64,000 bases of DNA from an uncultured Verrucomicrobiales bacterium. GTDB lineage: Bacteria; Verrucomicrobiota; Verrucomicrobiia; Limisphaerales; JAYPXF01. The notes under the pieces are model-generated. The model saw nothing but the letters and a program-made list of their open reading frames with translations. It ran no database searches and was not told the origin of the DNA. The position numbers were made by a program, and so were the translations under genes. Below, in pieces: positions 8,287 through 30,714 of this stretch (its first letter is position 1; every line of letters starts with the position of its first letter). The DNA is taken from assembly GCA_937893495.1 (NCBI GenBank), contig CALBIE010000391.1, forward strand, positions 1,363 through 65,362. The letters run 5' to 3'.

Positions 8287-11200
8287 ATGGCCTGCATCTA
8301 TCTCGTTGTCATCGAGCCGCCGTCGGGCGGAAGGTTCGAGCATCACCTGAAGGTCGGTGATTACGTACTGGGTCGCGCGGAGGAGTCCGCCGATATCGTC
8401 GTGCATTCGCCTGAGGTGTCGCGCCGGCACGTGCGGTTTGGCCTGCGCGACTGGCATTGCACCGTCGAGGATTTGGGCAGCACATCGGGAACGATTCACA
8501 AGGGAGAACGGCTCACCAGTCAGCAGGTATTCTCCTGTCCGGTCGAGATTCAACTTGGAACGGTGCGGGTGCGTGTCGAGGCGTGCGATGTCAGCGGCAG
8601 CGCTACTCCGGGTGCCGATGCGGCCGGGCATTATTACAAGGGCCGCGCAATCGCCAAAGGCGGGATGGGTGAGGTGTTGGAAGCGAATGATCAGTTGCTG
8701 GGCCGCACTGTGGCGATGAAGATCATCCGGCAGGATATCGGCGATCCGGAAAGCGCGCGCATGCGTTTCGTCCGCGAGGCCACCGTGCTCGCCCGGTTGG
8801 AGCATCCAAGTATCGTGCCTATTTATGAAATGGGGAGGGACGGCATTGGGCAACTTTTCTACGCCATGAAGCTCGTTCACGGCGTGAACCTGAGTCACAT
8901 TCTCAAACAGATCAGGGCAGGAGACACCGATACAATTTCGGAATACCCGCTGGCCCGGTTGCTGAATATTTTCCGCAAGGTTTGCGACGCCGTTGCCTTC
9001 GCGCACACGCATCAGGTGATTCACCGGGATCTCAAGCCGGAGAACATCATGGTGGGGGCGTATGGTGAAGTGCTGGTGATGGATTGGGGTCTGGCGAAGA
9101 TTCTCGATGACGCGGCACAGCAGGCGGCTGAGCGAAACACCGTTGCGTTCAATCCGGAGGCGATGACAATGCCCGAAGGATTCCAGGAACTCAGCGAGAG
9201 TGAGATGGCCGGAATGACCGCGAACCTGACGGTCGATGGCGCGGTGATGGGCACGCCAAATTTCATGGCGCCGGAGCAGGCCGAGGGGCGCATTGCCGAT
9301 CTCGATGCGCGCACGGACATCTACGCGTTGGGCGGCATCCTCTACAACCTCCTCACGCTACGTACGCCGGTGCAGGGGAAGTCGTTGAAAAAGGTGTTGT
9401 CAGATGTGCGCAGCGGCAACATCACGCCGCCCACCATTTACAATTCGCGGACCGGAGAGGCCGCGAAGTCCTTGCCCGACTGGGACGGCACCGCGGCGGC
9501 AGGGGAAAGCACACCGATAAAGCTCGCACATCTGCCGGGCGGACGGGTGCCATCCGCACTTTCAGCCGTGGCGATGCACGCGCTGGCGACTCAACCGGAA
9601 AACCGTTATCCGTCCGTGATTGACCTCGCCGAAGACATCGACGCTTACACGGGTGGTTACGCCACTTCCGCCGAGGCCGTCGGCACCCTCGGCCTGATCC
9701 GGCTGTTCATTGCGCGAAATCGGGTTCTGTCGGCGGCAGCCGCGATTGTTGTGCTGGTGACTTTGGGATTCATGGGGAAGGTCGTGGAGAGCGAACGTCG
9801 GGCGCAGACCAGTGCCACGGAAGCCGCCGCCGAAGCCAAGACAGCCCGCGCGGCGGAGACGACGGCACGGGCGGCGGAGGCCGTGGCCAGGGCGGAAAAG
9901 GAAAACAGTCGCAGGGCATTGGGTCAGGCGCAGATTGCCTTGGCGGAAGCCGCTTCGCGCGATGGCGATATCATCGGTTTGTTTCGGCATCTGGAAGCCT
10001 GTCCGGCCGATCTGCGCGAGACCAACTGGCAGTATCTCAACGGCAAGCGAAACACCTGCCTGGGGCAGTTGTCGGCGCAGGGCAGAGTGACCGGCCGGGG
10101 TTTTGCCTTTCGTCCGCGCACGTCGGGGAGCCGCCCCGAATTCGCGTTCATCAATGGTCCGCGTGGAATTGGCAGGGAAGTCGTGTTTCACGAGTTCGCC
10201 ACGATGCGGTGGGTTCGAACCATAAACATCGGCAGGAAAACGGGGCTCATCGCGATATCGCCAGATGGCAGGACACTGGCAACAGGTGGCGACGGAGATC
10301 CCGTGAATCTTTTTGACATCGCCACGCAGGAACGGGCCAGAACCCTCAATCTGGAGTTCAATGGTTTCGACGAGATGAAGTTTTCGGCAGATGGCACCCG
10401 GCTGTTCTACAGGCGGCGGAGACCGGGAACTCTCTACTGCGCCGATGCAACCGATGGCCGGACCATCTGGAAGTACGACGCACCACTGGCTCAGTCTGCG
10501 GTGGACCCGCTGGGCCGCTACGTCGCCGTCCATCACATGGACGCTCTTCAGACGGTCAATTTGATCGACGTCAAGACAGGTAAACCGGTTCGCACGTTGG
10601 AGCCAGGGAACGACTTCCTCTGGCAACTGGCATTTTCCGATGACGGCTCGTTTCTGGCCGGTGGAGATTTTCAGGGGTATGCCTCGATCTGGGACCTGCA
10701 ATCGGGTCAGCTTCGCAGCCGTGTTCGAGCCGGTGGCGGCCGCCTCACGAGTCTCGCTTTCACCCGGCAGAATCACTTGATCACCCTGTGCAACGAGACA
10801 CAGAACAAGACGGATGAAACGCAGAAGCGATTGCGCCTCTGGATCGTGGCCGAAGGCACTGAAATCGATTCCCGGCTGGGTGTGCCGACGGACGCCGGAC
10901 TATTCCTTCTCGAACCGACGACGGGCCGTCTGGTTTGCGATGGTGCTCGCATGACGCTGTGGCAGTTTCCGCTGCAGCCTGCGGATATTACGATCTCGCA
11001 TTCGGGCGCCAGTGGTTACGTGGCCGCTTTTCTGGGTGATTATCATCTGCTCTGCCCCGGTGATCAACTGAGCGAATGGATGACGATGCGGGAACTGCCG
11101 GTCCACGGTGACCCACCCGTAGTGTGGCGTTCGCGAACCTTCCGGGACTCAAGGTCCTTTGCCGTCACACCCGATCAATCCGTTGCCGTGTTGGCAAGGG

Positions 11201-12415: not shown

Positions 12416-13165
12416 ATGTCGAAACCCTTCACACACATCTGTTTCGAATGCGCGAACGGCATTCCCTATGACAACGAAACCGCCGGGCGTGAAATAGGGT
12501 GTCCGTATTGCGGCAACCACATAAGGTTGGGCGAGTCGTCCGGTGCCGTCGCTGAAGAGGCCGAGGCCAGTCCATGGTCGCATTCGGACGAAGAGGACAT
12601 GAGCGATGATTCGCAGAGAAGGGGCGTGCGTGCGTTCGCAATTATTATAGCGATACTGTTGGTTGCAGGCGGTGGCTGGGCGAGCTGGTGGTTTGGGTTC
12701 CGCCAGGTGCCGGTCGAGCCCGGAATCAAGTTGGTTGAATCCACGGTTGAGTCGGGATCGGAGCAAAACAAATCTCCGCAGCCTGAATCTAAACCGCCGT
12801 CGGTTGCCACGGAGACGAACGCGCCGGCGACTACGAATGCACCGCCCCCGGTTGACTGGCGAACCTTCATCGGAACCTATCGCCGTAATCCTTCCGAGAA
12901 CAGTTCGCATACGGGAATAATCAGCTGGGTGGGACTGAGTGACAGCGGGAAGCCGATCCTGAAGTGGCGCAATCTCGCCGGAGCGGAATGGCCACTCTAC
13001 CCGACCCCCAAATCTTGGAAGGTTCGTACAGGAAAAGGAAACCCTCACCTGAATACGGCTCAAGGCAATCACTTCGTATTTCGCCCGGGCGAAGGAACGA
13101 ATCGAATCCCCGCCGGGTTTGAATTCAATCAGGGTTTCTTCATGCGCATCATCCTGGCGCGGTGA
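12416..13165 (+). CDS. mosaic-family protein: N-terminal zinc ribbon - acidic PW motif - single TM - C-terminal 'YRRNP' domain (module B)
   Basis: 249-aa ORF. CFEC...CPYC zinc ribbon, SPWSHSDEED, TM (VRAFAIIIAILLVAGGGWASWWFGF), C-terminal DWRTFIGTYRRNPSENSSHTG...KWRNLAGAEWPLYPTP...GFEFNQGFFMRI. The last segment is shared with the genes at 19156 and 22456. Confidence 0.85.
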   Translation: MSKPFTHICFECANGIPYDNETAGREIGCPYCGNHIRLGESSGAVAEEAEASPWSHSDEEDMSDDSQRRGVRAFAIIIAILLVAGGGWASWWFGFRQVPVEPGIKLVESTVESGSEQNKSPQPESKPPSVATETNAPATTNAPPPVDWRTFIGTYRRNPSENSSHTGIISWVGLSDSGKPILKWRNLAGAEWPLYPTPKSWKVRTGKGNPHLNTAQGNHFVFRPGEGTNRIPAGFEFNQGFFMRIILAR

Positions 13166-13540: not shown

Positions 13541-14281
13541 ATGAACGAACGAGACACCATCTCGCCGGGCCAACAAGCCTATTTTCAAACCACGCACTGG
13601 AGTGCTGTGCTGACGGCCGCTCGACCTTCCGAACCACGGGCATCGGCGGCGCTGGAGACGCTTTGTCGTAACTATTGGCTGCCGTTGTATCTCTACGTGC
13701 GCCGCAAGGGATTCAGCACCGAGGATGCTCAGGATTTGACCCAGGGATTTTTCGCCCATTTGCTCGGGACTGCCTGGTTGACCAAGGCTGATCGCGCCAA
13801 CGGCAAATTTCGATCATTCCTGTTGGTATCCCTGAACAATTTCCTGGCCAACGATTGGGATCATCGCAACGCAAAGAAGCGCGGCGGAGGCGCCAGCCAT
13901 CTGTCCATCGACGAGGAACTTGCTGAAAAACGCTTTCACAATGAACCCGCCTCCGGTGAAACGCCGGAGCATTTTTTTGATCGGCAATGGGCGGCGACCG
14001 TTCTGGAGCGCGCCATGACTCGACTTGCCGACGAAATGGCAGCATCCGGAAAGAAGCAGTACTTCGACAGACTTCGGGAGTTTATGGCCATCCGTGCGGC
14101 TCCTTCCGCCTACCACGAAATCGCCGGTGAACTCGACACAACACCAGCAGCGTTGGCGATGGCGGTCAGCCGGATGCGGAAGCGATATCGCGAGATAATC
14201 CGGTCGGAAGTGACCGATACCCTGGCTGAACCGGGCGACGCCGATCTTGAAATCAGGCATCTCCTGGAGGCGATTGCCTGA
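13541..14281 (+). CDS. ECF-type RNA polymerase sigma-70 factor (PVC-type, Ser/Thr-kinase-associated class)
   Basis: Met at 13541 chosen inside the 365-aa ORF. It reads MNERDTISPGQQAYFQTTHWSAVL...LCRNYWLPLYLYVRRKGFSTEDAQDLTQGFFAHLL (sigma region 2) and ...ELDTTPAALAMAVSRMRKRYREI (region 4 HTH). No adjacent classical anti-sigma gene; it is followed directly by an STK. Confidence 0.85.
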   Translation: MNERDTISPGQQAYFQTTHWSAVLTAARPSEPRASAALETLCRNYWLPLYLYVRRKGFSTEDAQDLTQGFFAHLLGTAWLTKADRANGKFRSFLLVSLNNFLANDWDHRNAKKRGGGASHLSIDEELAEKRFHNEPASGETPEHFFDRQWAATVLERAMTRLADEMAASGKKQYFDRLREFMAIRAAPSAYHEIAGELDTTPAALAMAVSRMRKRYREIIRSEVTDTLAEPGDADLEIRHLLEAIA

Positions 14282-14351: not shown

Positions 14352-15980
14352 GTGGAAGAAAACGTGTATCAACAATTCGTTTCGACGAACAGCCAATCAT
14401 TTTTCATGGGAACCGGGAACGTACCTGCAAAGCTTTGTCGAGAGTGTGGAGGGCCGATTCCCTCTCAGTCTGCTCTCGGCGATGTTTGCCCGGCCTGCCT
14501 GGCCGGCTCGTTGATGGGCGATCCAACCGAGTTGCCAGGTGGCGGTTCAGCGTGCAAATCCGCTCCGATATTCAGGCCTGGAATGGAGCAGGAAAGACTG
14601 ATCGGAAAGCGGTTCGGCAAGTACGAGATCATTGAGGAAATCGGACGCGGTGGAATGGGGGTCGTTTATCGCGCCCGGGAGGAGGAATTGAATCGCGACG
14701 TGGCGCTCAAGGTTTTCCCTTTGTCGGCCATGGACAATGCGGAAAGGCTGAATCGGTTTCAGAACGAGGCGCGTGCATTGGCGCGCGTTCGCCATCCGAA
14801 TATCGTGGGCATTCACGAAACGGGAGTGCTGGACAGTCACCGTTTCATCGCCATGGATTTCATCGCGGGCCACGATCTCGCGCGGCGTATTCGTGGGGGC
14901 CTTCCCTCCATCGAACAAAGCGCGCGCTGGATGAAGAGCATCGCCTCGGCGACGGCGACTCTGCATGAACACGGCATTATTCATCGCGATCTGAAACCCT
15001 CCAACGTCCTGATGGATATCGATGGGAAACCTGTGCTGACCGACTTCGGCATCGCCAAGATTGTCAGCGACGACTCCAGCCTGACGATGACGGGAAGCGT
15101 CTTCGGCACTCCCGCCTACATGTCGCCCGAACAGGCGATGGAAAGCCGCGACGTCGATGAGGCCTCCGATGTGTACAGCCTTGGCGCCATTCTATACGAA
15201 CTCCTGACCGGTCGGCCGCCGTTCAAGGCCGACAGCACGGTGGATCTCCTGCTCCTGGTCACCGACGCGGAACCGATTCCTCCCCGGAAACTCAACCCGG
15301 ATGTCCCGATGGCGCTGCAGCAGATCTGCCTGCGTTGTCTGGAGAAGAAACCCGCCCGGCGATATCCATCGGCCGCAGCGCTTGCATCCGATCTCGAGGC
15401 CTACCTGTTGGGAGATGCCCCCGATACGCTCACCACGCACTGGATCGACGGATTCCAACGCCGAACCCGCCGACAGCCCGGTCTCATCATCCGCTGCGTT
15501 GTGTTGACCGTCGTCGCCGGTGTTCTCCAACTGAAACAGGTTGCGGCTCCAGATCTCGCGACTCCGGCAATTCACTATTCGGTGTTGAGTATCATCGCCA
15601 TCTGGATCGCGTCCGCTTTTTTCTTCCAGCGACTGGCCACGGAAAAGCGATTTGCAGCCCAGGCCCGCCGCTGGTGGGGTGCCGCGGACGCCATCCTGTT
15701 CACCAACATTCTCGTTGTCGGCGAGCAGGCTTCCGGACCGGAGCTGATTGGATATCCGCTGCTGATTGCGGCCATTGGGCTCACCTTTGATACGGAAGCC
15801 GTAATCATCACGGGTGCGTCGAGCGTTCTTGCCTACCTGTATTACCTGTCATTCCAGGACTTGGAGCGTTCCACCGTCCACCTCCATCTTGTCTTTTTGA
15901 TTGGACTGATGGCACTGACCTTTTGCATCCATTTTCAAATCCGTCGTGTTCGAGCATTGAGCCGATACTACGAGAATTAA
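14352..15980 (+). CDS. Ser/Thr protein kinase with N-terminal Cys4 zinc-ribbon-like motif and C-terminal polytopic membrane domain
   Basis: 542-aa ORF (GTG start; alternative ATG at 14406). CRECGGPI...CPAC motif. Kinase motifs GRGGMGVVYRA, ALKV, HRDLKPSNVLM, DFGIAK, GTPAYMSPE. About 5-6 hydrophobic helices after residue 370. Confidence 0.9.
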   Translation: MEENVYQQFVSTNSQSFFMGTGNVPAKLCRECGGPIPSQSALGDVCPACLAGSLMGDPTELPGGGSACKSAPIFRPGMEQERLIGKRFGKYEIIEEIGRGGMGVVYRAREEELNRDVALKVFPLSAMDNAERLNRFQNEARALARVRHPNIVGIHETGVLDSHRFIAMDFIAGHDLARRIRGGLPSIEQSARWMKSIASATATLHEHGIIHRDLKPSNVLMDIDGKPVLTDFGIAKIVSDDSSLTMTGSVFGTPAYMSPEQAMESRDVDEASDVYSLGAILYELLTGRPPFKADSTVDLLLLVTDAEPIPPRKLNPDVPMALQQICLRCLEKKPARRYPSAAALASDLEAYLLGDAPDTLTTHWIDGFQRRTRRQPGLIIRCVVLTVVAGVLQLKQVAAPDLATPAIHYSVLSIIAIWIASAFFFQRLATEKRFAAQARRWWGAADAILFTNILVVGEQASGPELIGYPLLIAAIGLTFDTEAVIITGASSVLAYLYYLSFQDLERSTVHLHLVFLIGLMALTFCIHFQIRRVRALSRYYEN

Positions 15981-16035: not shown

Positions 16036-16479
16036 ATGGACACTTTGTTGAACTTCCTTTCCCTGGTTTGGCCCTACCTGTTGGTGGGGGCGATACTCGC
16101 CCTTGTTGTGTCCGCCCGCCGCTCGATGGCGAGGCGCGGGCAGGATTTCCGGACGTTTGCCCGACGGGTTGTCACCTTCGATAATATCGGTGTGGCGCTT
16201 TTCGTCTGGGCGGCGGCAAGCGTGGTTCTCTGTGCGTCCTTGCAGAGCGTTTTGTCGAGCCAATCTGAGGCCCTGTTATTTATCTATGCTGACTTGATCC
16301 CAAGCCCCTTGTTTTTGATCCTGAATGGGATCGCATTGAAGCGAAACCTTTCCGGCCCAAAGGCGACCGGAAGCCATTGGAGCGTGAGGGTGATGCTGAT
16401 TCTTGGTTTTTTGTTTTGGGGCCTCGTGTTTTTGTTCTTCCTCGCAACGGGGTTTAGGCCAGGCATGCTTTTGATGTGA
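16036..16479 (+). CDS. small polytopic membrane protein
   Basis: ORF 16024..16479 (TTG); ATG at 16036 preferred. Four hydrophobic segments (LLNFLSLVWPYLLVGAILALVV, IGVALFVWAAASVVLCASL, LIPSPLFLILNGIAL, VMLILGFLFWGLVFLFFLA). Confidence 0.65.
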   Translation: MDTLLNFLSLVWPYLLVGAILALVVSARRSMARRGQDFRTFARRVVTFDNIGVALFVWAAASVVLCASLQSVLSSQSEALLFIYADLIPSPLFLILNGIALKRNLSGPKATGSHWSVRVMLILGFLFWGLVFLFFLATGFRPGMLLM

Positions 16480-16541: not shown

Positions 16542-19112
16542 ATGTCTGACGCAAAAGCATGCCCCCAGTGCGGGAGTGAAATGAGTCCGTCCGAACTCGA
16601 CGGGCTTTGTATGGCCTGCGTGGCGAAGATGGGCTTCAGCGAGGCGGAGATTGGAATCGATCCCCGGCCCGATGATGGTCCGGTGAAATCCGAGGTGCCC
16701 CGGAAAATCCGCTACTTTGGTGATTACGAAATTCGCAGTGAGGTTGCCAGGGGAGGGATGGGAGTTGTCTATCGTGCGCGGCAGATGACGCTGAACCGGG
16801 ATGTCGCGCTCAAAATGGTAATGGGTGGCGTTCTGGCATCTGAAACGGAGGTCCAACGTTTCCGCACCGAGGCGGAAGCGGCTGCCCGGCTCGATCATCC
16901 CAATATCGTGGCCATCTACGAATTCGGTGAGCATGAGGGTTGCCAATACTTCACGATGAAGTTCATCGAAGGCGGCAGCCTGGCTCAACGGATCGGGGAA
17001 TACACCGGCCATCAGCGCGCCGCTGCCGTGCTGATGGCCAAGGTTGCGAGGGCGATTCACTATGCTCACCAACACGGCGTGCTCCATCGTGATGTCAAGC
17101 CGGCCAACATCCTGCTCGACGAATACGGGGACCCGCACGTGACCGATTTCGGGCTGGCAAAGATCGTCGAGGACGAACGCAATCTGACCCTGAGCGGCGC
17201 CGTGATGGGGTCGCCGGCCTACATGGCGCCGGAACAGGCGGAAGGCAGCAGCAAACGGATCAGTGCCGGCACCGATGTCTATGGCCTCGGGGCAGTTCTT
17301 TACCACCTGCTGACTGGTTCCCCACCTTTCAAAGGGAAATCAGCGATGCAGGTGGTTGCCAAAGTGATTGATTCCGCACCGGCCTTGCCGTCCTCATTGA
17401 TGCCGAAATTGGATGAACAGCTCGAATCCATCTGTCTTCGCTGTCTGGAGAAGAATCCTGCGAGCCGGTATTCATCCGCGGCGGGACTGGCCGATGATCT
17501 GGAGCGATGGCTGCAAGGTGAACATCGGGAATCCTCGCGCGCGCCGTTCGCAGCTCGGTTGCGGAACAGGATTCGCCGAAATCCCGTCGTGGCCGGTTGC
17601 CTGGCTGTCGCGGTATTGGCTCTTGGGATGGTTGGATGGAAGTATCTTCCAACCGGCGGCTGGCTTGGGAAACGCGGGGAAATCTTAAAAGCCGGGGGCA
17701 TGGCTCCATCGAAACAAGTGAGTCCGTTTGTGGGAACGAACGCTCAACTTCGAGCCAGATGGACCAACAGCCTCGGAATGGTCTTTGTGCCTGTGCCGGG
17801 AACGGAAGTGCAGTTCTGCATCTGGGAGACCCGGTTTCAGGATCACGGAACGTTTGCGAAGCAGACGAGCCGGGCGGTGAAATTGCCTTCGCTCGAAGGC
17901 CCGACGTACCCGGCAGTGAATGTGTCGTGGGGCGAAGCAAAGGAATTTTGTCAATGGCTGACCGAGAAGGAACAAAAGGCCGGATTGCTCGCGAGCGATC
18001 AATTGTATCGGCTACCTACGGATGAAGAATGGAGCCGGGCGGTGGGCTTGACGAGTGAAAGCGGGTCAACGCCGGTGATGCGAATGGCCGCAGGAATCAA
18101 AGGTGTCTATCCCTGGGGAACGGGGTGGCCGCCGCCTCGGGGCGCAGGGAATTACGCGGAGAGTCTGAACATGGATGATTTCGAGCGCACCGCTCCCGTG
18201 GGCTCCTTTGATGGGAACGCTTACGGAATTCATGACCTGAGCGGCAATGTATGGGAGTGGTGCGAAGACAGTCCCGGCGACAGCGGTCGCAACCGCCGTG
18301 TGCTGCGCGGTGGATCCTGGAACTGCGACCGTCCCGCCGATCTGTTGTCCTCCGGCCGCTTCATCAAGGAGGTGCCGTCGACGCCCTACGATCACATTGG
18401 GTTTCGAGTTGTGCTGGCAATCTTTGATTCGGAACTCGAAAGAAACCTCCGTCGGACGTCTCAGTCGGCCGTGGAGGACGGAAGCGTCCGGGCAATCGTC
18501 CCCGGCGGTCTGGCATCGTGCCGGCAGTTGCTGAAGAAACAGGGCGGTGACGAAAACAAGTTGTACGTCCACGGCGGAATACTTTGTTACGACGAAATCG
18601 ACGGACTTAATCTCGATCCGTTGAAGGGGGTTCCCTTGAATTCGCTCCACTTTGTCGGATCCCCGACAGCTGATCTGAAACCAGTGGTGGGGATGCCGTT
18701 GTATAATCTCAATCTGCATTCCAGTCCGAATCTCACCGATTTGTCCCCAATCCGCGCGTTGCAATTGCGAAAGCTCACGCTTGATGGGTGTACGAGTATT
18801 CGTGATTTTTCCGTGCTGTCAGAATTGAATCTTGAGTCGCTTGACCTGAAGGGGACCGCCATTGCTGATATTTCAATCGTCATAGGAAAGAACCTGAAGT
18901 ACCTCCGGCTTGAGGAATGTCGCCAGATCAAAAGTCTGCTGCCGCTGAAAGGACACAACTCGATCGAGACATTGATCGTTCCGATGAACGCGCCCGACAT
19001 GGAAGCATTACGAGGTCTGCCAAAGCTCAAGATGATTGGTTTCACTGAAGAAGGCTTGAAGGCGCCCAAGGATTTCTGGGCGGAATACGATTCGAAGAAA
19101 AAAGACCGTTAG
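16542..19112 (+). CDS. Ser/Thr protein kinase - TM - FGE/SUMF1-type (formylglycine-generating-enzyme-like) domain - LRR-like module 1
   Basis: 856-aa ORF. CPQCG...CMAC N-terminus. Kinase motifs (ARGGMGVVYRA, ALKMV, HRDVKPANILL, DFGLAK, GSPAYMAPE). TM (VVAGCLAVAVLALGMVGW). SUMF1 motifs (NSLGMVFVPVPG, VSWGEAKEFCQWLT, YRLPTDEEW, GNVWEWCED, RVLRGGSW, GFRVVL). C-terminal LRR-like repeats ending FWAEYDSKKKDR, paralogous to the tail of the 23754 gene. Confidence 0.9.
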   Translation: MSDAKACPQCGSEMSPSELDGLCMACVAKMGFSEAEIGIDPRPDDGPVKSEVPRKIRYFGDYEIRSEVARGGMGVVYRARQMTLNRDVALKMVMGGVLASETEVQRFRTEAEAAARLDHPNIVAIYEFGEHEGCQYFTMKFIEGGSLAQRIGEYTGHQRAAAVLMAKVARAIHYAHQHGVLHRDVKPANILLDEYGDPHVTDFGLAKIVEDERNLTLSGAVMGSPAYMAPEQAEGSSKRISAGTDVYGLGAVLYHLLTGSPPFKGKSAMQVVAKVIDSAPALPSSLMPKLDEQLESICLRCLEKNPASRYSSAAGLADDLERWLQGEHRESSRAPFAARLRNRIRRNPVVAGCLAVAVLALGMVGWKYLPTGGWLGKRGEILKAGGMAPSKQVSPFVGTNAQLRARWTNSLGMVFVPVPGTEVQFCIWETRFQDHGTFAKQTSRAVKLPSLEGPTYPAVNVSWGEAKEFCQWLTEKEQKAGLLASDQLYRLPTDEEWSRAVGLTSESGSTPVMRMAAGIKGVYPWGTGWPPPRGAGNYAESLNMDDFERTAPVGSFDGNAYGIHDLSGNVWEWCEDSPGDSGRNRRVLRGGSWNCDRPADLLSSGRFIKEVPSTPYDHIGFRVVLAIFDSELERNLRRTSQSAVEDGSVRAIVPGGLASCRQLLKKQGGDENKLYVHGGILCYDEIDGLNLDPLKGVPLNSLHFVGSPTADLKPVVGMPLYNLNLHSSPNLTDLSPIRALQLRKLTLDGCTSIRDFSVLSELNLESLDLKGTAIADISIVIGKNLKYLRLEECRQIKSLLPLKGHNSIETLIVPMNAPDMEALRGLPKLKMIGFTEEGLKAPKDFWAEYDSKKKDR

Positions 19113-19120
19113 AATACCGG

Positions 19121-22350: not shown

Positions 22351-22421
22351 TTCGTGGAGTGTGTCGGGAAATGTTGTGCCGGTTACGAATTCATGAAAAA
22401 TAAGATCTGTTGGAACTTCGC

Positions 22422-22455
22422 CTGAATGCTTTTGTTGAAAAGGAACAGCAAAGCC
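22422..22455 (+). promoter_or_regulatory. conserved leader module (second copy)
   Basis: ctgaatgcttttgttgaaaaggaacagcaaagccATGGCCAAACA aligns along its whole length with 19121-19165. Confidence 0.35.
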
Positions 22456-23592
22456 ATGGCCAAACAGTTGAAACATTCCTGCCACCATTGTGGGAACGTC
22501 ATTCCCCACGACGATGACGTGGTGGGGAACGAAGTGACTTGTCCCCACTGTGCGAACACCACCGTTCTGGGAAATGACTATTCGGGCCATATGGGGAACG
22601 CAAATTCCAATCCATGGGATGAAGATCCGTGGGAAAAGCAGATGGAAGAAGTCGCGAAAGAAGAAACCCAAGATCGCGAGCAACTGGTGGTCAGGAAGTG
22701 GAGCGACAGCGTGGTTGGCACGGTGTGGGGCGGGGTTTGTTTCCTGCCGATCATTGTTCTTCTGCTTTGGGGATTCGCGAGTGAGGAATATGGCCACACG
22801 CTCAAGGAATTCAGCGAGAAAGTCGTTCCCCCGGGCACCAATGGCCTTCCGGGCATCATCGGGTTCCTGTTTATTCTGCTCCCCACGGTGGTGGTGGGGA
22901 CTGTGCGTATCGTTCTGGCCCTCTGCTACAATCCATTTACCTATCTGATTTTTTGCAGTTGCCTGGGATTCGGCGCGTTGGCCGGTTGGTTCGTTGCAAC
23001 CGTTTGGAATCCTCGGGTTGAGCTTCTGCGTGGGTTCGCCACGGTATTGCTCGGCTTCACGCTTTCGTTCGGGTTCGTCCAAATGGTACTGGCCGAAAAG
23101 TGGAGGAACTTCAGCGCGAGCAAGATATCCGGACAGAGGAACCTCAAGGTACCTCAAAAGCCGGCTCCGAACGAATTGCCAAAGTCGACTCCCGGCGCGC
23201 CACCCGGTGTGCCCACCAAGGTCGCCCCGCAGAAGAAGCAGGCTGCAAAACCAGCGACCGCCATCGATTGGCGTGTCTTTATCGGAACGTACCGTCGCAA
23301 TCCCTACGAAAACACGTGGCATGTGGGAACCATCACCTATGTCGGCATGAGCGGCAGTGGAAAACCGATGCTGAAATGGCGAAATCAGGCAGGCATGGAA
23401 TGGCCACTCTATCCCACACCGGATACATGGAATGTTCGCACCGGCAAGGGAAATCCTTATCTGAACACGGACCAGGGCAATCATTTCGAATTCCGCCCGG
23501 GCCAGCATTCCAACAGCCCACCGGTTGGGTTTCAGTTCAACCAGGATTTTTTTCAACGACTCGTCGTGCCCGCCCAGGGGGGAGCGAGATAG
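22456..23592 (+). CDS. mosaic-family protein: zinc ribbon - NPWDED motif - about 4 TM - module B
   Basis: Met at 22456 (MAKQLKHSCHHCGNVIPHDDDVVGNEVTCPHC) preferred over the ORF-track start at 22426. NPWDEDPW motif, four hydrophobic helices, C-terminal DWRVFIGTYRRNPYENTWHVG...KWRNQAGMEWPLYPTP...GFQFNQDFFQRL. Confidence 0.9.
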   Translation: MAKQLKHSCHHCGNVIPHDDDVVGNEVTCPHCANTTVLGNDYSGHMGNANSNPWDEDPWEKQMEEVAKEETQDREQLVVRKWSDSVVGTVWGGVCFLPIIVLLLWGFASEEYGHTLKEFSEKVVPPGTNGLPGIIGFLFILLPTVVVGTVRIVLALCYNPFTYLIFCSCLGFGALAGWFVATVWNPRVELLRGFATVLLGFTLSFGFVQMVLAEKWRNFSASKISGQRNLKVPQKPAPNELPKSTPGAPPGVPTKVAPQKKQAAKPATAIDWRVFIGTYRRNPYENTWHVGTITYVGMSGSGKPMLKWRNQAGMEWPLYPTPDTWNVRTGKGNPYLNTDQGNHFEFRPGQHSNSPPVGFQFNQDFFQRLVVPAQGGAR

Positions 23593-23753: not shown

Positions 23754-26519
23754 ATGCCTGATTCAATACCCCAAACCTGTCCAAAATGCGGCCGGCCGCT
23801 TTCGGTTATCGGTGCCGGCACGGCAAAGTTTTTCGTTTGTGCTCCCTGCAATGTCACGCTTTCGCCCGATGACCAGGATTCGGAGCCCTCGACTGCACCG
23901 ATTGTGCTGGGCACCGATACGTCGCCGACCATTCCGCCAAACGGAGCATTCTGCTTCCCGTCTCTTACGCGCTGGGCGGCACTGGCAGTTGCGATGATCC
24001 TCGGACTCGCATGGATCTTATGGATTGGCATGCAGTTGAGCAGATTCTCTTCTCAAGGCGCCGGAATCGGGATTTTCGGTCCACCTTTTACCTTGTTGAT
24101 TTTGTCGGGAAAGGCAGCGCAATGGAGTATCGCCGGCTTTTTGATGGTGTTCGTCGCTCAACGCGTAAAACAACCAAAGGATTTGCTGCACCGAGTCCAT
24201 CTGGCGGCGTTATTGAGTGTCGCCGCGTTGGTGGCCAATCAGTCAGGCCTTTCGCTTCCGCTTGGGTTTCCTAGCCAAACCCTTCGTTATGCCGAGTCGG
24301 CAGGTTTCATCGCCTTTCTCCTGACGTTCGGGCTGCAGAAGGTCGATCCGGTCGCCAAGCGGCGGCCCCGCGTGCAACATCTGGCGATCTGGACGGCCGC
24401 GTTCATAGCCTTGGCATCTGTCGTTGGTTTCGCTGGATTGCCGGGATTTGTGTTGAGCGGTGCGTTCCTGTTGGCCCAAGGGCTGCAGGTCGTTTTCTTC
24501 TTCAGTTGCTTTAGGGAGCGACTCTCGATTCCCACCGCCATTCCTGAAGTGGGAGGTGATGCAGCGGCTGCACCGAAACCATCCTGGGGCCGGCAGGCAC
24601 TCGTCACCTCCATTTTTACCGGTGGAAGTATCCTTTGCTATGTTACCGCCTTGGCCAGCCCCGCCCTTGAAGGAGATGGCAGTCGAAGCGTGACGGGCCT
24701 CACCTGCCTTCTCTTTGGATGGATGAGTCTGGGCGACAACCAGGCATGGTTTGCGAATTTTTGCCTGTTCCCCGCTCTTTTCCTCTTAATGGCGCGAGGC
24801 TTGAGTGAACCACCCGCGAAGCGGCAAACCTGTCCCTCGTATTTTTTGGTCGTCATCCTCGCGGGATTGGCACTCGCCCTGTCGCTTGGAGCATTGGACA
24901 TGAAGGGTTTCGCCGTGCCCGTCGGTTGGGGGGGGCAGAGCAGCAATAAATGGCCGATAACGTCCATCGGACCCGGTTGTTATCTGTGGATCGCAAGCAT
25001 CCTTTTCATCGGAATGGGGGCTGTTGTTCTGATTCTAAGGGACCTATTGAATCTCAAGTCGACGGGCAGGCGAAGTTTGCTGGTGCTCGGCGGCGTCTCT
25101 GCAGTGGCGCTGTCTGTGGCGAGCCTCGCCAAATATGAAAAATCCTTACTGACAAAAAACCGCTATCGCAATGTTCCGTCGCAGCCCCAGGGTCGATCAG
25201 CCGCCCAAGGCGGAGTGAGTCGCCGACCGAGCCCGACTGCTTCTTTCACCGGCAAAATCCCAACACTCTCTGTTGCTCAATTCACCAATGCGTTTCTGCC
25301 CACGAACGGACTCGTGGCGTGGTTTCCTTTCAACAGTACCGTTCTGGACGAGAGTGGAAACGATCTTCATGCGACCAATCATGGCGCCCGATTCGTGGCC
25401 GATCGCTTTGGCATCGCGGAGCGGGCATTGAGGTTTGATGGAAAACAATATGTCGATTGTGGCACGAACCGCATTTTCGAACTGGGTGAACAGGGCACGC
25501 TGGCCTGTTGGATGCTTTCGTTCCAACCAACCGGCCCGCTCATTGGCAAAGATCCATTCCGGTATCACGACGACGTCCAGCTCGGCATCGATCCCCACGA
25601 TCGCGCCCGGGGCAAAATTGCCTTGGCAATGAGTCCGAAGCGCGAGGAAAAGATACACGTCGCCACCGGGCCAACTGCCACGCCCGGTCGCTGGTATCAC
25701 GTGCTTGGCCAATGGGACAAAAACGGTTATCGCCTGTTCATCAATGGGAAGCAGGTCGCCTCGGGTTCTGGAGCCCACAGTGTTCATGCTGCCGGCCATC
25801 CGTTGTTAATCGGCCGCTTTCAGACCAACCGATTCTTTCGCGGAATCATTGACGATGTCGCCATCTACGATCGTGCGCTGAGCGGCGATGAAGTGGAATC
25901 ACTTCATCGCTATTCTGAATTGGCCCTATGGCGGCACTCGCTAATGGAACATGGAATTGATTCGACGAAGTTGTCCTTCAACGGATCAAAATTGGAATTC
26001 GGCCTTGTTGATGGCCATGATTTACGCCCATTAACGGGAATCCCGCTCAATAGACTCTATTTCGTCGGGTCGCCGGTCACGAATCTGACCCCACTCGTTG
26101 GCATGCCGCTTGAGCACATCAATCTGCATGCGAGCCCGAAATTGAAGGACTTGTCCCCCCTCAGTGAACTGCCACTCAATTCCCTGATTCTCGATCGATG
26201 CACAGGCATTCTGGATTTGTCCCCTCTCAAGAACTTGAAGTTACGAGAACTTGATTTGAACGACATGCTGATCGCCGATCTTGCCCCTATCGGACAAATG
26301 AAGGTGACCTTCCTTCGGCTCGAAAACTGCCGCCAGATCGCAACCCTCAAACCGTTGCTGGGAAACACATCAATCGAAACCTTGGTCGTCCACACCGATG
26401 TTCCCGACATCGAAGTGATCCGATCTCTCCCCAATCTGAAGAAAGTCGGATTCACCTCAGCCAAACTGAAAACGCCGGAACAATTCTGGGAAGAATACGA
26501 TTTGAAGAAAAAACATTAG
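23754..26519 (+). CDS. mosaic-family protein: zinc ribbon - large polytopic membrane domain - LamG domain - LRR-like module 1
   Basis: 921-aa ORF. CPKCGRPL...CAPC, then roughly 10 or more hydrophobic helices. LamG (LVAWFPFNSTVLDESGNDLHATNHGARFVADRFG...GIIDDVAIYDRALSGDEVESL). C-terminal LRR-like repeats ending FWEEYDLKKKH. Confidence 0.9.
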   Translation: MPDSIPQTCPKCGRPLSVIGAGTAKFFVCAPCNVTLSPDDQDSEPSTAPIVLGTDTSPTIPPNGAFCFPSLTRWAALAVAMILGLAWILWIGMQLSRFSSQGAGIGIFGPPFTLLILSGKAAQWSIAGFLMVFVAQRVKQPKDLLHRVHLAALLSVAALVANQSGLSLPLGFPSQTLRYAESAGFIAFLLTFGLQKVDPVAKRRPRVQHLAIWTAAFIALASVVGFAGLPGFVLSGAFLLAQGLQVVFFFSCFRERLSIPTAIPEVGGDAAAAPKPSWGRQALVTSIFTGGSILCYVTALASPALEGDGSRSVTGLTCLLFGWMSLGDNQAWFANFCLFPALFLLMARGLSEPPAKRQTCPSYFLVVILAGLALALSLGALDMKGFAVPVGWGGQSSNKWPITSIGPGCYLWIASILFIGMGAVVLILRDLLNLKSTGRRSLLVLGGVSAVALSVASLAKYEKSLLTKNRYRNVPSQPQGRSAAQGGVSRRPSPTASFTGKIPTLSVAQFTNAFLPTNGLVAWFPFNSTVLDESGNDLHATNHGARFVADRFGIAERALRFDGKQYVDCGTNRIFELGEQGTLACWMLSFQPTGPLIGKDPFRYHDDVQLGIDPHDRARGKIALAMSPKREEKIHVATGPTATPGRWYHVLGQWDKNGYRLFINGKQVASGSGAHSVHAAGHPLLIGRFQTNRFFRGIIDDVAIYDRALSGDEVESLHRYSELALWRHSLMEHGIDSTKLSFNGSKLEFGLVDGHDLRPLTGIPLNRLYFVGSPVTNLTPLVGMPLEHINLHASPKLKDLSPLSELPLNSLILDRCTGILDLSPLKNLKLRELDLNDMLIADLAPIGQMKVTFLRLENCRQIATLKPLLGNTSIETLVVHTDVPDIEVIRSLPNLKKVGFTSAKLKTPEQFWEEYDLKKKH

Positions 26520-26528
26520 AGCCGACCG

Positions 26529-26559
26529 TCAATGCTTTTGAAGGTTGGAAAGGTGAAAT
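26529..26559 (+). promoter_or_regulatory. conserved leader module (third, diverged copy)
   Basis: tcaatgcttttgaaggttggaaaggtgaaatATGGCAAAGCC starts 9 nt after the stop of the LRR1-ending gene. The layout matches that at 19112/19121. Confidence 0.3.
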
Positions 26560-27993
26560 ATGGCAAAGCCGGTTACACACATTTGTCACGGGTGCGGGAA
26601 TGGCATTCCGCACGATGCTGAAGCAACAGGTAAGACTGTTTCGTGTCCGTATTGTGCAGTAGCGACCGAACTGGGAAAAATCTACCCGACATCTGAAATG
26701 TCCCGTGCGAATCCATGGGACGAGAGCGAGGAAGCCTCCCCGGAACAAACAGCTGAGATAACGGCACAAGGTTACCAATCCCCCCCTCCCCTTCCAAGGA
26801 AAGATGCCGATTCCACCGCTGACGTCGGCGAATCTGAGCAATCAATTCGTGGCCGCTCGGTGCGCAAGCGCGAACAGCCCGTAAAGGCTAACACTGAAGG
26901 AGGATCCTTGTTATTTCTTAGAGGATTCTTGTTAACGCTTTTGGGCATGGCTGCTGGGTTCGCTCTGGGTTTTAACTACCAAGATTCGATAAGCCCTGCT
27001 GTTACTAATCCGAGCACCGGGGAGCTGAACCCCGTCTTAATGGCCTTCAACGTGTTTGTGGGGTGTTGCGGAGCGGCTATCGGAGGAGTCATTGGGATTT
27101 TGTCACACTTGGTTTTGAAAGAATTTACAAAGCAGGATAAGGCGGGAGGCGGTATTGCCATCAGCCTATCCGAGATAATCGTCATTGCCGTCATGATCGC
27201 GGGCGTAATCTTTTCCACGCAGTTCGAATTCAAGGGACGTAGCGGCGCCAATCCGGTCAAGGTGGCAAAACTCGAACACGTCGTTTCAACGAATGAGACC
27301 AAGCCGAACAAGCCGGTGGTATCTCAAACGAATACCGACCCGACCAATCCGGAACTGGTCAGGTGGCAAAACAAAATGACCAAAGAAGGTCTCGAGAAGG
27401 TGAACCAGCTGCCAATTCCAATTCAATTGGCCTTGAAGGGGCGGGCCACCAAGGATGGGCAGGGAAACATTTCGATGAGTTTCCGGGAGTCCAAGATCGA
27501 CGACCTTTCAGGGATCAATGCCCTGCCCGTGACCGAACTCGATTTGGACTTGACCGGCATCCGGAACCTGAAGCCCTTGGAGGGCCTAAAGCTCCGGGTC
27601 CTGAAGCTTTACAATACCAGGGTGACCGACCTTCGCCCACTTTCGGACATGCCCTTGAATGTCCTGTTCATTAACAGCCCCGTCGCCGACCTGGAACCGC
27701 TGCGCGGAATGCCCTTGACAAACATGGCGGTCGTTTCGTCTGCAGTTGTGGATATCAGACCGTTGGCAGGAATGAAATTGAACAAGCTGTGGATTGCGAG
27801 CGATCGACTTGTGAGTCTTGCCTCCTTGAAGGGACAGCCGATCGAGAATCTCGAACTGGGTTGCCCGTCGATTTCGGATCTGTCGCCTCTGCTGGAATGC
27901 AGGCAGCTAAAGCGGTTGACGATTCACCCCAACCTGAACAAACGCGCCGGGATCCTCCTCCGTCATCCGTCATTGACCAACATTGTGAATTAG
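26560..27993 (+). CDS. mosaic-family protein: zinc ribbon - NPWDE - S/T-rich juxtamembrane motif - 3 TM - LRR-like module 2
   Basis: 477-aa ORF. MAKPVTHICHGCGNGIPHDAEATGKTVSCPYC; NPWDESEE; PRKDADSTADVGESEQSIRGRSV; three hydrophobic helices. C-terminal LRR-like repeats ending HPSLTNIVN, paralogous to the tail of the 28074 gene. Confidence 0.9.
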   Translation: MAKPVTHICHGCGNGIPHDAEATGKTVSCPYCAVATELGKIYPTSEMSRANPWDESEEASPEQTAEITAQGYQSPPPLPRKDADSTADVGESEQSIRGRSVRKREQPVKANTEGGSLLFLRGFLLTLLGMAAGFALGFNYQDSISPAVTNPSTGELNPVLMAFNVFVGCCGAAIGGVIGILSHLVLKEFTKQDKAGGGIAISLSEIIVIAVMIAGVIFSTQFEFKGRSGANPVKVAKLEHVVSTNETKPNKPVVSQTNTDPTNPELVRWQNKMTKEGLEKVNQLPIPIQLALKGRATKDGQGNISMSFRESKIDDLSGINALPVTELDLDLTGIRNLKPLEGLKLRVLKLYNTRVTDLRPLSDMPLNVLFINSPVADLEPLRGMPLTNMAVVSSAVVDIRPLAGMKLNKLWIASDRLVSLASLKGQPIENLELGCPSISDLSPLLECRQLKRLTIHPNLNKRAGILLRHPSLTNIVN

Positions 27994-28073
27994 TAAGCAC
28001 ACGGACGATTGGGAAAAGGCCCCATACGTCGAAAAGTTCCAGACAAAGTATCACTCTCAACATCATCGACCGA

Positions 28074-30644
28074 ATGATTAAGTTGCTACCTCTACTTGGC
28101 CTCGTTTTCTATATCGTGGCGGTTTCCCGTGCAGTCCCTTGTGCAAAAGAACGAGGTCTCAAGCCTCTCCACATCTGGCTGGCCGCCATCCCGCTATGGT
28201 TTTTCAATCAGGTAATTGCGGGTCCGCTGATCTTGGTTCCAATCCTAAGACTTCTAGGACCCCTTGCAGGTCTGTTCTATCACTCGCAGTTTTGGCAGGG
28301 GCTATTGGTTTTCTTGCTGATCCGGATCTTTCGCCGCCCTCGGAAAGAGGCCGATTCCAGCACTGACGTCGGCGAATCTGAGCAGTCAGTTCGTGGCCGC
28401 TCGGTATTCGTTCAGATGTCGAGAGGCGTCTTGTTGGGCGGGGCCGCTGGAGTAGTGGTGATATTGATCGCCGTCTCGCAGATGTTCGGTGCTGATGCGG
28501 GCGGGTTTATGATTGTCTTCGGAGGACCCCTGCTCGTGTTGGCAATCATCGGCGCTTCAGCGTACTTGGCAATCGGACGGTTCACGAACGGAAGCAGACG
28601 GTCTCGTCGCCCGGCGACCGGGTTGCGATGGATCGCCGCACTGTTGCTGGTATTTGGAATCGCCTACGCCGCGTCGCTATTCAATCGGCCCAGAGCGAAT
28701 CTGCCCAAACCCGTGGCCAGTGCAAACGCCGAACGAAGCCAGTGCCTGAAACATCTCAAAGAAATCGTGCTTGCCTTCAAGATATTCGCGGAGAAAAACG
28801 ATGGTCGGTTCCCCTTTGAATTCGAAGGCCCACCGGGAACAAAACCGTTTGTCAAACGTGATTCCAACGGCGACGAAATCGATCCCTTCCGCCATTTCTT
28901 GACGCTGAGCAACCAACTCGGTTCAACCAGGCTACTCACCTGTCCCAGTGACAAATCACGGAAAATGGCGGCCGATTGGACCTCGTTCCGTTTGGCTAAC
29001 ATCACCTACAAACTCCGAACCGGTCCGCAGGTCAACGGGATGCAGAATAACCAGAACGTGCTGATGTGGTGCCCGATTCACTTTACCCGCGCCTATTGTG
29101 ACAGTTCGGTCGGGCTGGGAAATCAGAGGCAGTTACTTGAAGCCATCGAGGCCGGAAAGAAGGCAAGTGTCAAACCACGCCCGGTGGATCGATCGCCAAA
29201 CAAATCGAAGGCTCTCGCTTCCAATTCTCCGCCCTTCCAAGAGCGATCCGACAATCCCGCCACGCCGAATCGGGTCACAAAGCGAAAGGCGAGGGCGAAT
29301 CCCCGGCCTACTCCAGAGCCACTCTGGCAGGGGAAAATTCCGACCATTCCAGTCCAACAGTTTACCAACGCTTACGCTCCAACGAACGGTCTCGTCGCGT
29401 GGTATCCCTTCAACGGCAATGTGCAGGATGAGAGCGGGAACGAACGCCATGCAACCAATCGTGGCGCGCGGTTCGTGCCAGATCGTTTTGGCGTGTCCGA
29501 TGGGGCGCTGAGATTTGACGGGAAACAATTTGTTGATTGCGGGACCAACAGCGTTTTCGAGTTGGGTAAACAGGGCAGCCTGGGATGCTGGATGTTACCG
29601 TTTGAAAGAACCGGCCCCTTGGTCGGCAAGGATTCCCTAAAGTTTCACGACGACATCCAGTTGGGAGTCAATCCCCACAACAAGGCCCGCGGGAAAATCG
29701 CGATGGCAATGAGCCCGAAGGAGGGCGAGCAAATCCGCCTTGCAACGGGCCCGGAAATCACGCCGGGCAAGTGGTATCACGTGCTGGGCCAATGGGACAC
29801 CAACGGCTTTCGCCTGTTTGTCAATGGGAAGCAAGTCGCCGAAAATACCGGTGACTATCGGGTTCATGCCGCTGGACACCCGCTGCTCATTGGGCGCTTT
29901 CAGACCAGTGAATACTTCAAAGGAATCATCGACGATGTTGCCATCTATAATCGGGCGCTGAGCGGCAACGAAGTGGAATCGCTTCATCGCTATTCCGAGT
30001 TGGCCCACTGCCAGAGCAGGCTGGAAAAGCAAGGTCTCGATCAGGTGAATCAATTGCCGACAAAGCTGCAATTGGCATTGATGGGCCGGGTATCCAAGGA
30101 CGCAGGCGGGAATCTGTCCATGAGTTTCAAGGATTCGAAAATACGCGACCTCTCCGGCCTCAACGGACTGCCGTTGACACGCCTCAATCTGGATGGAACC
30201 GGTGTTGCCGACTTGACTCCGCTGACGGGGTTGCGACTTCGTGAACTCAAACTCTGGGGAACACAGGTGACCAATCTGCAGGCGCTTTCGAAGATGCCAA
30301 TCAATGTCCTTTTCGTCGCCAGTCCGGTTGTTGACCTGGAACCCCTTCGGCACTGCCCGTTGGAGAATTTGTGGATTCTTTCGAAGAACCTCGCGGACAT
30401 CAGCCCGTTGACGGGAATGGAGTTGAACAATTTGTGGATTGGGAGCGACCGACTGGAGGATATTTCCGCATTGAAGGGACAGCCGATCGAGATACTCCGG
30501 TTGGACGGGTGTCCGTCCATTGCGGACTTTTCGCCTTTACTGGAGTGCAAGCGGCTGAAGCGCCTGAAGATTCATCCGAAACTGACCAACCAAATCGAAT
30601 TCCTCCGCGCGCATCCGCCATTGACCGACATTGTCAACCAATAG
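28074..30644 (+). CDS. mosaic-family protein: polytopic TM with S/T-rich motif - pilin-like segment - LamG domain - LRR-like module 2
   Basis: Met at 28074 (MIKLLPLLGLVFYIVAV) chosen, because the ORF-track start at 27789 overlaps the preceding gene out of frame. PRKEADSSTDVGESEQSVRGRSV; SQCLKHLKEIVLAFKIFAEKNDGRFP (pseudopilin/DUF1559-like); LamG about three-quarters identical by eye to that of the 23754 gene; LRR-like tail ending HPPLTDIVNQ. Confidence 0.9.
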   Translation: MIKLLPLLGLVFYIVAVSRAVPCAKERGLKPLHIWLAAIPLWFFNQVIAGPLILVPILRLLGPLAGLFYHSQFWQGLLVFLLIRIFRRPRKEADSSTDVGESEQSVRGRSVFVQMSRGVLLGGAAGVVVILIAVSQMFGADAGGFMIVFGGPLLVLAIIGASAYLAIGRFTNGSRRSRRPATGLRWIAALLLVFGIAYAASLFNRPRANLPKPVASANAERSQCLKHLKEIVLAFKIFAEKNDGRFPFEFEGPPGTKPFVKRDSNGDEIDPFRHFLTLSNQLGSTRLLTCPSDKSRKMAADWTSFRLANITYKLRTGPQVNGMQNNQNVLMWCPIHFTRAYCDSSVGLGNQRQLLEAIEAGKKASVKPRPVDRSPNKSKALASNSPPFQERSDNPATPNRVTKRKARANPRPTPEPLWQGKIPTIPVQQFTNAYAPTNGLVAWYPFNGNVQDESGNERHATNRGARFVPDRFGVSDGALRFDGKQFVDCGTNSVFELGKQGSLGCWMLPFERTGPLVGKDSLKFHDDIQLGVNPHNKARGKIAMAMSPKEGEQIRLATGPEITPGKWYHVLGQWDTNGFRLFVNGKQVAENTGDYRVHAAGHPLLIGRFQTSEYFKGIIDDVAIYNRALSGNEVESLHRYSELAHCQSRLEKQGLDQVNQLPTKLQLALMGRVSKDAGGNLSMSFKDSKIRDLSGLNGLPLTRLNLDGTGVADLTPLTGLRLRELKLWGTQVTNLQALSKMPINVLFVASPVVDLEPLRHCPLENLWILSKNLADISPLTGMELNNLWIGSDRLEDISALKGQPIEILRLDGCPSIADFSPLLECKRLKRLKIHPKLTNQIEFLRAHPPLTDIVNQ

Positions 30645-30704: not shown

Positions 30705-30714
30705 ATGTATGTTT

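Follow-up and report, generated by a model that had tools for sequence, protein, structure and literature searches.

A conserved sigma factor and kinase cassette within a mosaic array of membrane protein genes in an uncultured Verrucomicrobiota-type bacterium

We analysed 64 kb of DNA from an uncultured Verrucomicrobiota-type bacterium, hereafter the window. We focused on a block of eleven genes at positions 8287-30644 (g1 to g11), encoding an extracytoplasmic function (ECF) sigma factor, Ser/Thr kinases and membrane proteins assembled from recurring modules. A preliminary description of this DNA had placed eleven co-directional open reading frames here, on the + strand, and all are present. 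On balance, we favour a reading in which the block combines a conserved signalling cassette of two parts with mosaic membrane proteins that expanded around it in this lineage. Gene neighbourhoods show the conserved core to be the predicted ECF sigma factor g3 with the putative Cys4-ribbon membrane Ser/Thr kinases g4 and g6.

The sigma factor and its linked kinases

The sigma factor gene is g3 (13541..14281, + strand). Searched directly, its product matches family models only weakly; for TIGR02937 the score is 18.8 bits, where the cut-off is 42.9. Assignment comes from comparison with homologues. More than 4600 were found, of ~248 aa and 45-69% identical to g3. Many contain PF04542, PF08281 or PF07638 and are named ECF sigma factors. 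By these relationships, the predicted protein belongs to the ECF (group 4) sigma-70 factors. Briefly, the family alignment shows FxTTHWS at the N-terminus, DAQDLTQ in region 2.2, KRGGG within a long linker and a conserved region 4. In g3 itself, region 2.2 reads E-D-A-Q-D-L-T-Q. The second Asp is invariant in an alignment of 25 sequences and the first is mostly Asp, with some Glu or Asn. The family occurs in Verrucomicrobiota, Planctomycetota and Acidobacteriota, and the closest relatives of g3 are from Verrucomicrobiota metagenome-assembled genomes. The reading frame is open from 13184 but the start is most likely at 13541, which would give a protein of 246 aa, like its relatives. The public call for g3 starts at 13328 and extends the protein to 317 aa, compared with ~248 aa in the family.

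Hanks-type Ser/Thr kinases, recognised by a Pkinase domain with the catalytic Lys, HRD and DFG-type motifs, are encoded by g1, g4 and g6. All retain the catalytic motifs (VAMK/VALK, HRDLKP/HRDVKP and DWG/DFG/DFG). The g4 product (14406..15980, + strand) has a Cys4 zinc ribbon, the kinase domain (Pfam E 3.6e-53) and a polytopic membrane domain with ~5 hydrophobic segments by hydropathy. The g6 product (16542..19112, + strand) has a Cys4 zinc ribbon, the kinase domain (Pfam E 2.6e-50), one transmembrane segment, an FGE-sulfatase-like domain, also matched in Pfam, and a leucine-rich repeat (LRR) module, LRR1 (18522-19103). Both ribbons (window positions 14406-14500 in g4 and 16542-16640 in g6) were identified by profile.

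We examined genomic linkage using one genome per species. At least 593 sigma relatives were found, and the best 80 loci (L007-L086) were analysed. A kinase domain is present in 73 of these. In 65 of the 80 it is on the same strand as the sigma gene, with its start less than 1 kb downstream. The sigma-kinase link proposed in the preliminary description is thus borne out. An N-terminal ribbon of the form CxxCG-x(9-10)-GLCPxC occurs in 63 of the 65 sigma-adjacent kinases. With a profile of this ribbon, g6 scores 34 bits and g4 scores 20 bits, and the other proteins of the block go undetected. These include g1, which has no N-terminal Cys4 ribbon, and the proteins with the ZnRibbon module described below. 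This sigma-kinase family is very large and experimentally untouched.

The nearest sigma relative, at locus L089, is 69% identical to g3. Gene order at this locus is sigma factor, small YiaAB-like protein with four transmembrane segments, Cys4 kinase. This kinase shares 55% identity with g6 and 40% with g4. Its closer match points to g6 as the likely ancestral and orthologous partner of g3, ahead of g4, which is probably a later paralogue. The YiaAB-like gene lies between sigma factor and kinase (1056-1568 of L089). In the block, g5 (16036..16479, + strand) occupies the equivalent position and is not homologous. It encodes a small protein with four hydrophobic segments, by hydropathy, and family searches with it returned no match.

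The Cys4 ribbon on sigma-linked kinases is not mentioned in the kinase-ECF literature cited here. It may be a sigma-docking element of an uncharacterised mode of ECF regulation, in Planctomycetes-Verrucomicrobia-Chlamydiae (PVC) bacteria and Acidobacteriota. Public calls on the same contig start g4 at Met78 (465 aa; 14352-15980) and g6 at Met14 (843 aa), leaving the conserved ribbon cut off or broken.

Mosaic genes and their duplication

The remaining genes are all on the + strand. The g1 product (8287..11946) combines an FHA domain, the third kinase domain (E 5.6e-33), one transmembrane segment by hydropathy (~residues 477-502) and WD40 beta-propellers. Its FHA, Pkinase and WD40 matches all exceed Pfam cut-offs. 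Gene g2 (12416..13165) starts 470 nt past g1, and ~375 nt separate it from the sigma start. Its product has a zinc ribbon that we call ZnRibbon (12416-12595), one transmembrane segment, a Pro/Ser-rich linker and a module termed B (12851-13162), as identified by blastp, tblastn and hydropathy; no Pfam family matched. The g7 product (19156..22350) starts with a signal-anchor or lipoprotein-like N-terminus. There follow a Cys-containing module, CysModule (19324-19515), HEAT repeats confirmed by Pfam, module B (21430-21735) and two further CysModules (21859-22059, 22096-22308). The g8 product (22456..23592) has ZnRibbon (22456-22617), four hydrophobic segments, a Lys/Pro-rich linker and module B (23263-23568).

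In g9 (23754..26519), a Cys4 ribbon precedes ~11 hydrophobic segments, a LamG domain (25254-25925) and LRR1 (25926-26516). The g10 product (26560..27993) has ZnRibbon (26560-26733), an acidic Ser/Thr (S/T) motif (26787-26861), three transmembrane segments and a second LRR module, LRR2 (27355-27990). The g11 product (28074..30644; frame open from 27789) has two or three transmembrane segments, the S/T motif (28331-28405), three further transmembrane segments, a Cys-containing region of unrecognised fold, LamG (29334-30005) and LRR2 (30000-30638). Pfam detects Laminin_G_3 in g9 (E 2e-21) and g11. In the LRR regions, LRR_4 scores slightly under the Pfam cut-off; the LRR call in g9, g10 and g11 is backed by NCBIfam internalin models (E down to 3.6e-9). 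Module by module, Pfam confirms FHA, Pkinase, WD40, FGE-sulfatase, HEAT and Laminin_G_3.

Most of the architectures in the preliminary description stand, with three amendments. First, the ribbon of g9 had been counted as a ZnRibbon. A profile of the g2, g8 and g10 ZnRibbons fails to detect it, and it is a generic Cys4 ribbon. Second, every module was said to occur in at least two contexts. This holds for B, LamG, LRR1, LRR2, the S/T motif and ZnRibbon but not for CysModule, all three copies of which are inside g7. Third, a 'pilin-like' label was not confirmed by any Pfam, NCBIfam or PDB sequence match. The AlphaFold model of CysModule has a pLDDT of 79 and a long N-terminal helix. Its best Foldseek match, to the type IV pilin PilA1, is weak (E 3.7, template modelling score 0.48). 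No GFTLIE-type prepilin motif is visible in the sequences of the CysModule protein or the g11 region.

Module sharing was measured by all-against-all blastp, and by tblastn of each module against the whole window. Recurring modules are true homologues, with E values of 1e-11 to 1e-142. Copies of module B are 69% identical between g2 and g8, 53% between g2 and g7 and 54% between g7 and g8. Identity is 73% for LamG (g9 and g11), 51% for LRR1 (g6 and g9), 60% for LRR2 (g10 and g11) and 37-46% for ZnRibbon (g2, g8 and g10). The S/T motif, RK(D/E)ADS(T/S)(A/T)DVGESEQS(I/V)RGRSV, lies just ahead of the three-transmembrane segment in both g10 and g11. It is 83% identical over 23 aa and 87% identical over 75 nt, well above its flanks. 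The excess would be explained by gene conversion or by strong constraint. A common origin of ZnRibbon and the kinase Cys4 ribbon was considered and rejected at the profile-detectable level; they are separate families. Outside the block, the window has no copy of any module, except that the PSCyt/PSD1 gene at 3426-6701 gives a weak match to LamG.

Genes g2 and g7 to g11 consist of modules recurring in differing combinations. Breakpoints of identity are sharp. The g11 product is 63-80% identical to g9 over residues 520-729 and 17-47% identical beyond residue 760, where it is 53-67% identical to g10. These changes fall at domain borders and bear out the earlier claim of recombination at module borders. 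LRR1 is common to g6 and g9. Hence, kinase ectodomains and non-kinase proteins draw on one module set.

Module B was modelled by AlphaFold as a confident, eight-stranded, all-beta fold (pLDDT 93.9). The best Foldseek matches are lipocalins, none significant (template modelling score 0.46-0.47, E 0.08-0.5), and the lipocalin-like PF16369 matches two of 101 B-carrying proteins. B is a rare domain and has no Pfam model. An exhaustive hidden Markov model search of 1.84 billion representative proteins gave 227 matches. In these proteins (P0124-P0270 among them), B usually follows a signal peptide, mostly in secreted proteins and often in tandem copies. Partner domains include TonB_C, F5/8 type C, lipases, peptidases, LamG and LRR, with a Pkinase domain in one protein. 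Thus, with its signal peptides and widely varying partners, B looks like a mobile extracytoplasmic binding module. P0165 has a kinase-like N-terminus, a transmembrane segment and B. By hydropathy, B is predicted to lie outside the cell in g2 (one transmembrane segment) and g7 (signal anchor). The preliminary description had flagged conflicting membrane topologies for B, and the conflict remains, with one transmembrane segment in g2 and four hydrophobic segments in g8.

Conservation of the block beyond the core was assessed with tblastn and profiles. ZnRibbon, B, LRR1, LRR2, the HEAT region, g5 and the S/T motif occur in none of the 80 sigma-relative loci, and the same is true of the g4 membrane domain and FHA. 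The sole exception is a Verrucomicrobiota protein at L075 with a weak match to the ZnRibbon profile (23 bits). It consists of a zinc ribbon, one transmembrane segment and ankyrin repeats (~3100-6600); its gene precedes a sigma-kinase pair by 7 kb. Hence, membrane proteins anchored by a ribbon may be more widespread in PVC bacteria. Only one of the 227 B matches, P0127, has the ZnRibbon-4TM-B architecture (ZnRibbon, four transmembrane segments, B). It is the only such protein from outside the window's own organism, and is an orthologue of g8 with identical architecture. On its 6-kb contig, P0127 is flanked by a gene for a protein of no recognised family and one for an HrpB-type helicase, with a membrane protein encoded on the other strand. 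There is no sigma factor or kinase gene on this contig. Scanning 185,579 species representatives with the three window copies of B found no relative. When metagenomes were scanned with the B alignment, the only matches were from the same organism (L087, equating to g2), apart from one spurious antisense match on an FGE gene. The broad B alignment found only six proteins in a word index of 5.8 billion proteins, a yield limited by that index, and is too divergent for locus scanning. The contig itself recurs in several metagenome assemblies, and its proteins are in 90% clusters of one or two members. Hence, the proposed reading of the ensemble as one system is not supported. We see no sign that the block in its entirety forms a new, conserved system, and we describe the array as a lineage-specific mosaic expansion.

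Three gene junctions on the + strand, identified from repeat D9, alignment and motif searches, record how the array formed. Between g6 and g7 (19094..19158), a non-coding leader (TGAATGCTTTTGTAG at 19122-19136) runs into a ATGGCCAAACC start. The same leader (22423-22437) lies between g7 and g8 (22395..22458). Ahead of it is a relic of the LRR1 3' end, which survives here only in decayed form. Between g9 and g10 (26500..26562), the leader (26529-26543) follows the LRR1 3' end. Homology spans the LRR1 end, the stop codon, the non-coding leader (TGAATGCTTTTG...GGAA) and an ATGGC(C/A)AA(A/G)C start. Local alignment of the g6-g7 junction gives z = 20 with g7-g8 and z = 17.5 with g9-g10 (z 17-20 overall). 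The 15-nt leader motif has three exact occurrences, compared with 0.87 expected by chance. This motif, T(G/C)AATGCTTTTG(T/A)(A/T)G, is 17-20 nt 5' of the g7, g8 and g10 start codons. The leader is about as conserved as the coding modules, and for this reason may be a regulatory or translational element.

Homology of the three junctions, down to the leader and MAK(P/Q) start, shows at the level of sequence that the array was enlarged by tandem segmental duplication, with domains then replaced or lost. The alignments likewise show the apparent duplicated unit, an LRR1-ending gene plus a ZnRibbon gene, copied repeatedly. Homology of the junctions explains the ribbon-less 'MAKP' start of g7.

Such duplication might by itself explain the block. 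Hence, we considered that the genes have no functional coupling, and that co-directionality and close spacing are by-products of tandem duplication in a paralogue-rich region. The junctions fit this account, as does the lack of conservation of non-core genes with the sigma factor. G+C content also drops, from ~0.58-0.60 to 0.50-0.55 over the 3' half of the block. Lineage-specific expansion and new architectures of signalling proteins are known in PVC bacteria (PMC11032199, PMC8567305). Other observations argue for coupling. Intergenic gaps from g3 to g11 are 40-160 nt, and the block has 29 terminator-like sites compared with 22.9 +/- 4.8 in shuffled sequences, and so no enrichment. Together, these favour co-transcription. 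In addition, the g6 kinase and g9 have LRR1 in common. We regard the absence of any coupling as a possible but doubtful explanation.

The flanks of the block contain two PSCyt/PSD1-DUF1501 pairs (3426-8134 and 50576-55468), sulfatases and BNR proteins. Such genes are typical of PVC bacteria. The LamG domains of g9 and g11 have a weak relative in the first PSCyt/PSD1 protein. At 41282-46743 and 48625-49899 are genes for two sulfatases and a Fic-domain protein. G+C content is 0.50-0.52 over g10, g11 and an unannotated minus-strand gene for a 560-aa protein at 30715-32397 (window positions 26000-32000), compared with 0.55-0.61 across most other parts of the window. Neither Rfam nor tRNA scans gave any match in it.

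Possible modes of signalling

If the block is a conserved cassette within a lineage-specific expansion, signalling could proceed as follows. The g4 and g6 kinases would sense extracytoplasmic or membrane signals via their variable C-terminal halves; these are the polytopic domain in g4 and the FGE-like domain with LRR in g6. The kinases may then activate g3 by phosphorylation, by analogy with PknT/EcfP and PknS/EcfK. In turn, g3 would probably drive the closely spaced g4 to g11. The membrane products of g4 to g11 could serve as envelope-anchored ligand-binding proteins, using the B beta-barrel, LamG and LRR. The ZnRibbon and other membrane proteins would more probably be accessories or outputs of this cassette than inputs resembling anti-sigma factors.

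Four points weigh against this account. First, the upstream regions of 77 sigma genes have no common promoter motif that could mark autoregulation (the most frequent k-mers occur in at most 14), and none was found within the block. Similarly, a sigma-70 promoter scan gave counts no different from those in shuffled sequence, and a GAAC-containing repeat lying upstream of g3 shows no enrichment across the window. Second, g3 keeps an acidic DAQD motif. Hence, the phospho-Thr charge mechanism of the ECF43 group, described below, is not simply transferable. Third, the topology predicted for g8, with four hydrophobic segments and a Lys-rich linker, puts B inside the cell, as does that of P0127, in conflict with g2 and g7. 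Fourth, the closest relatives are represented by short contigs (2.9 and 6 kb), which makes for weak sampling of the lack of g7-g11-like neighbours among them.

The ZnRibbon proteins could have a more direct role. The preliminary description likened them to zinc-binding anti-sigma (ZAS) factors. In this alternative, they are combinatorial co-receptors or anti-sigma-like inputs, and the block is a multi-input sensor array. They do share one layout: a cytoplasmic zinc ribbon, a transmembrane region and an ectodomain with a binding fold, without an enzymatic output domain. The genes are tightly spaced and co-directional. Furthermore, g10 and g11 have the acidic S/T motif next to the membrane, at 87% nucleotide identity, and the block includes the FHA-bearing kinase g1.

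We compared ZnRibbon with ZAS factors. The latter, for example RsrA, RshA and ChrR, have H-x3-C-x2-C within a helical anti-sigma domain of ~80 aa. The likeness is a Cys-rich, zinc-binding, cytoplasmic N-terminus, to which membrane-bound ZAS forms add a transmembrane segment and an extracytoplasmic domain. However, ZnRibbon is CxxC-x16-CxxC, spans ~35 aa and lacks H-x3-C-x2-C. It has H-x-C-x2-C at its start and C-P-x-C after the 16-residue spacer, and is followed by an NPW(D/S)E motif. Pfam searches (E up to 5) found only sub-threshold generic zinc-ribbon families and no anti-sigma families. The ZnRibbon profile had no match in the index of 5.8 billion proteins.

Gene order also differs. Anti-sigma genes are usually at +1 and co-transcribed with the sigma gene. 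The first ZnRibbon gene had been described as directly upstream of the sigma gene; g2 is indeed upstream, but across a gap of ~375 nt. A canonical 170-aa ECF sigma factor, with regions 2 and 4, is encoded elsewhere in the window (60923-62036), and the downstream gene, which overlaps it, specifies a 203-aa membrane protein without family match. This pair has the usual sigma/anti-sigma arrangement, in contrast to g2 and g3. No ZnRibbon or B gene accompanies the sigma gene in any of the 80 loci, where no general search for anti-sigma families was made. The anti-sigma analogy is not supported on these grounds.

The broader proposal of a multi-input array is rather unlikely. None of ZnRibbon, B, LRR1, LRR2 or the S/T motif is present in the 80 loci, and the g8 orthologue P0127 has unrelated neighbours. 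Consistent with this, anti-sigma factors are typically missing from kinase-linked ECF groups (PMC7826278). A combinatorial sensor array, if conserved, would mean that bacteria integrate signals by a new logic; our results favour a more ordinary case. A more specific version is that the ZnRibbon-anchored proteins are new, non-catalytic co-receptors, docking on the local FHA- and Cys4-bearing kinases via ribbon and S/T motif. One ECF sigma factor would then integrate many ligands through B, LamG and LRR modules exchangeable by recombination. We consider this quite improbable.

Finally, an anti-phage defence island based on PD-T4-6, MADS6 or PglW type Ser/Thr kinases was rejected as extremely unlikely: the kinase domains match PADLOC PD-T4-6 and mad6 models (E down to 1e-87) and NCBIfam MADS6 and PglW models, but the PADLOC matches span the generic kinase domain only, the NCBIfam scores are far under curated cut-offs (e.g. 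183 compared with 460 bits), the only PADLOC match among non-kinase genes is a generic HEAT/ARM repeat model on g7, and the kinases belong to the sigma-linked Cys4 type.

Relation to known systems

The preferred account, a conserved cassette with mosaic genes expanded around it, has precedents for both parts. Signalling from kinase to ECF sigma factor is not a new route; it has already been described for ECF43, and predicted for ECF59-62 and ECF217. The cassette of g3 and its kinases is a kinase-associated ECF system of known kind, given the kinase neighbourhoods described above.

In the ECF43 group, the sigma gene adjoins a gene for a transmembrane Ser/Thr kinase, and this adjacency is the group's hallmark (PMC13147305). 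Direct phosphorylation of ECF43 sigma factors has been demonstrated experimentally (PMC13147305, PMC8999054). The pairs are EcfP/PknT of Vibrio parahaemolyticus and EcfK/PknS of Xanthomonas citri. As in ECF43, the sigma gene described here adjoins a transmembrane kinase gene; ECF43 pairs have no anti-sigma factor, and in the 80 loci no ZnRibbon or B gene accompanies the sigma gene. There are also differences. In ECF43, region 2.2 has QTTA or STTA, containing the phospho-Thr, in place of the acidic DxxD (PMC13147305, PMC8999054). In contrast, g3 and its relatives keep DAQD, and the defining feature of ECF43 is absent. EcfK is smaller, at 22.5 kDa with a His tag, and an N-terminal Cys4 ribbon is unmentioned for PknS; the word 'zinc' does not appear in the paper (PMC13147305). 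Hence, given the acidic motif in region 2.2 and the near-universal kinase ribbon, the ECF43 phospho-switch model may not apply to the g3 family.

Groups ECF59-62 and ECF217 are predicted, kinase-linked groups of planctomycetes (Casas-Pastor et al. 2021; Jogler et al. 2012). By their published description, ECF59, ECF61, ECF62 and ECF217 resemble the g3 family in belonging to the same superphylum and having a kinase in the conserved neighbourhood. They have no anti-sigma factor and are predicted to be controlled by phosphorylation. The papers cited here on these groups mention no experimentally studied member.

The mosaic genes compare best with expansions of PVC kinases. In Gemmataceae and 'Ca. 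Uabimicrobium', kinases are fused to WD40, FHA, TPR and other repeats, and form species-specific clades that are attributed to duplication and recombination (PMC11032199). The block described here differs in two respects. Shuffling reaches membrane proteins without kinase domains, whose genes form a single array, and the duplication can be read directly from the homologous gene junctions. The block is a clear worked example of how receptor-like proteins of PVC bacteria diversify by tandem segmental duplication and domain swapping.

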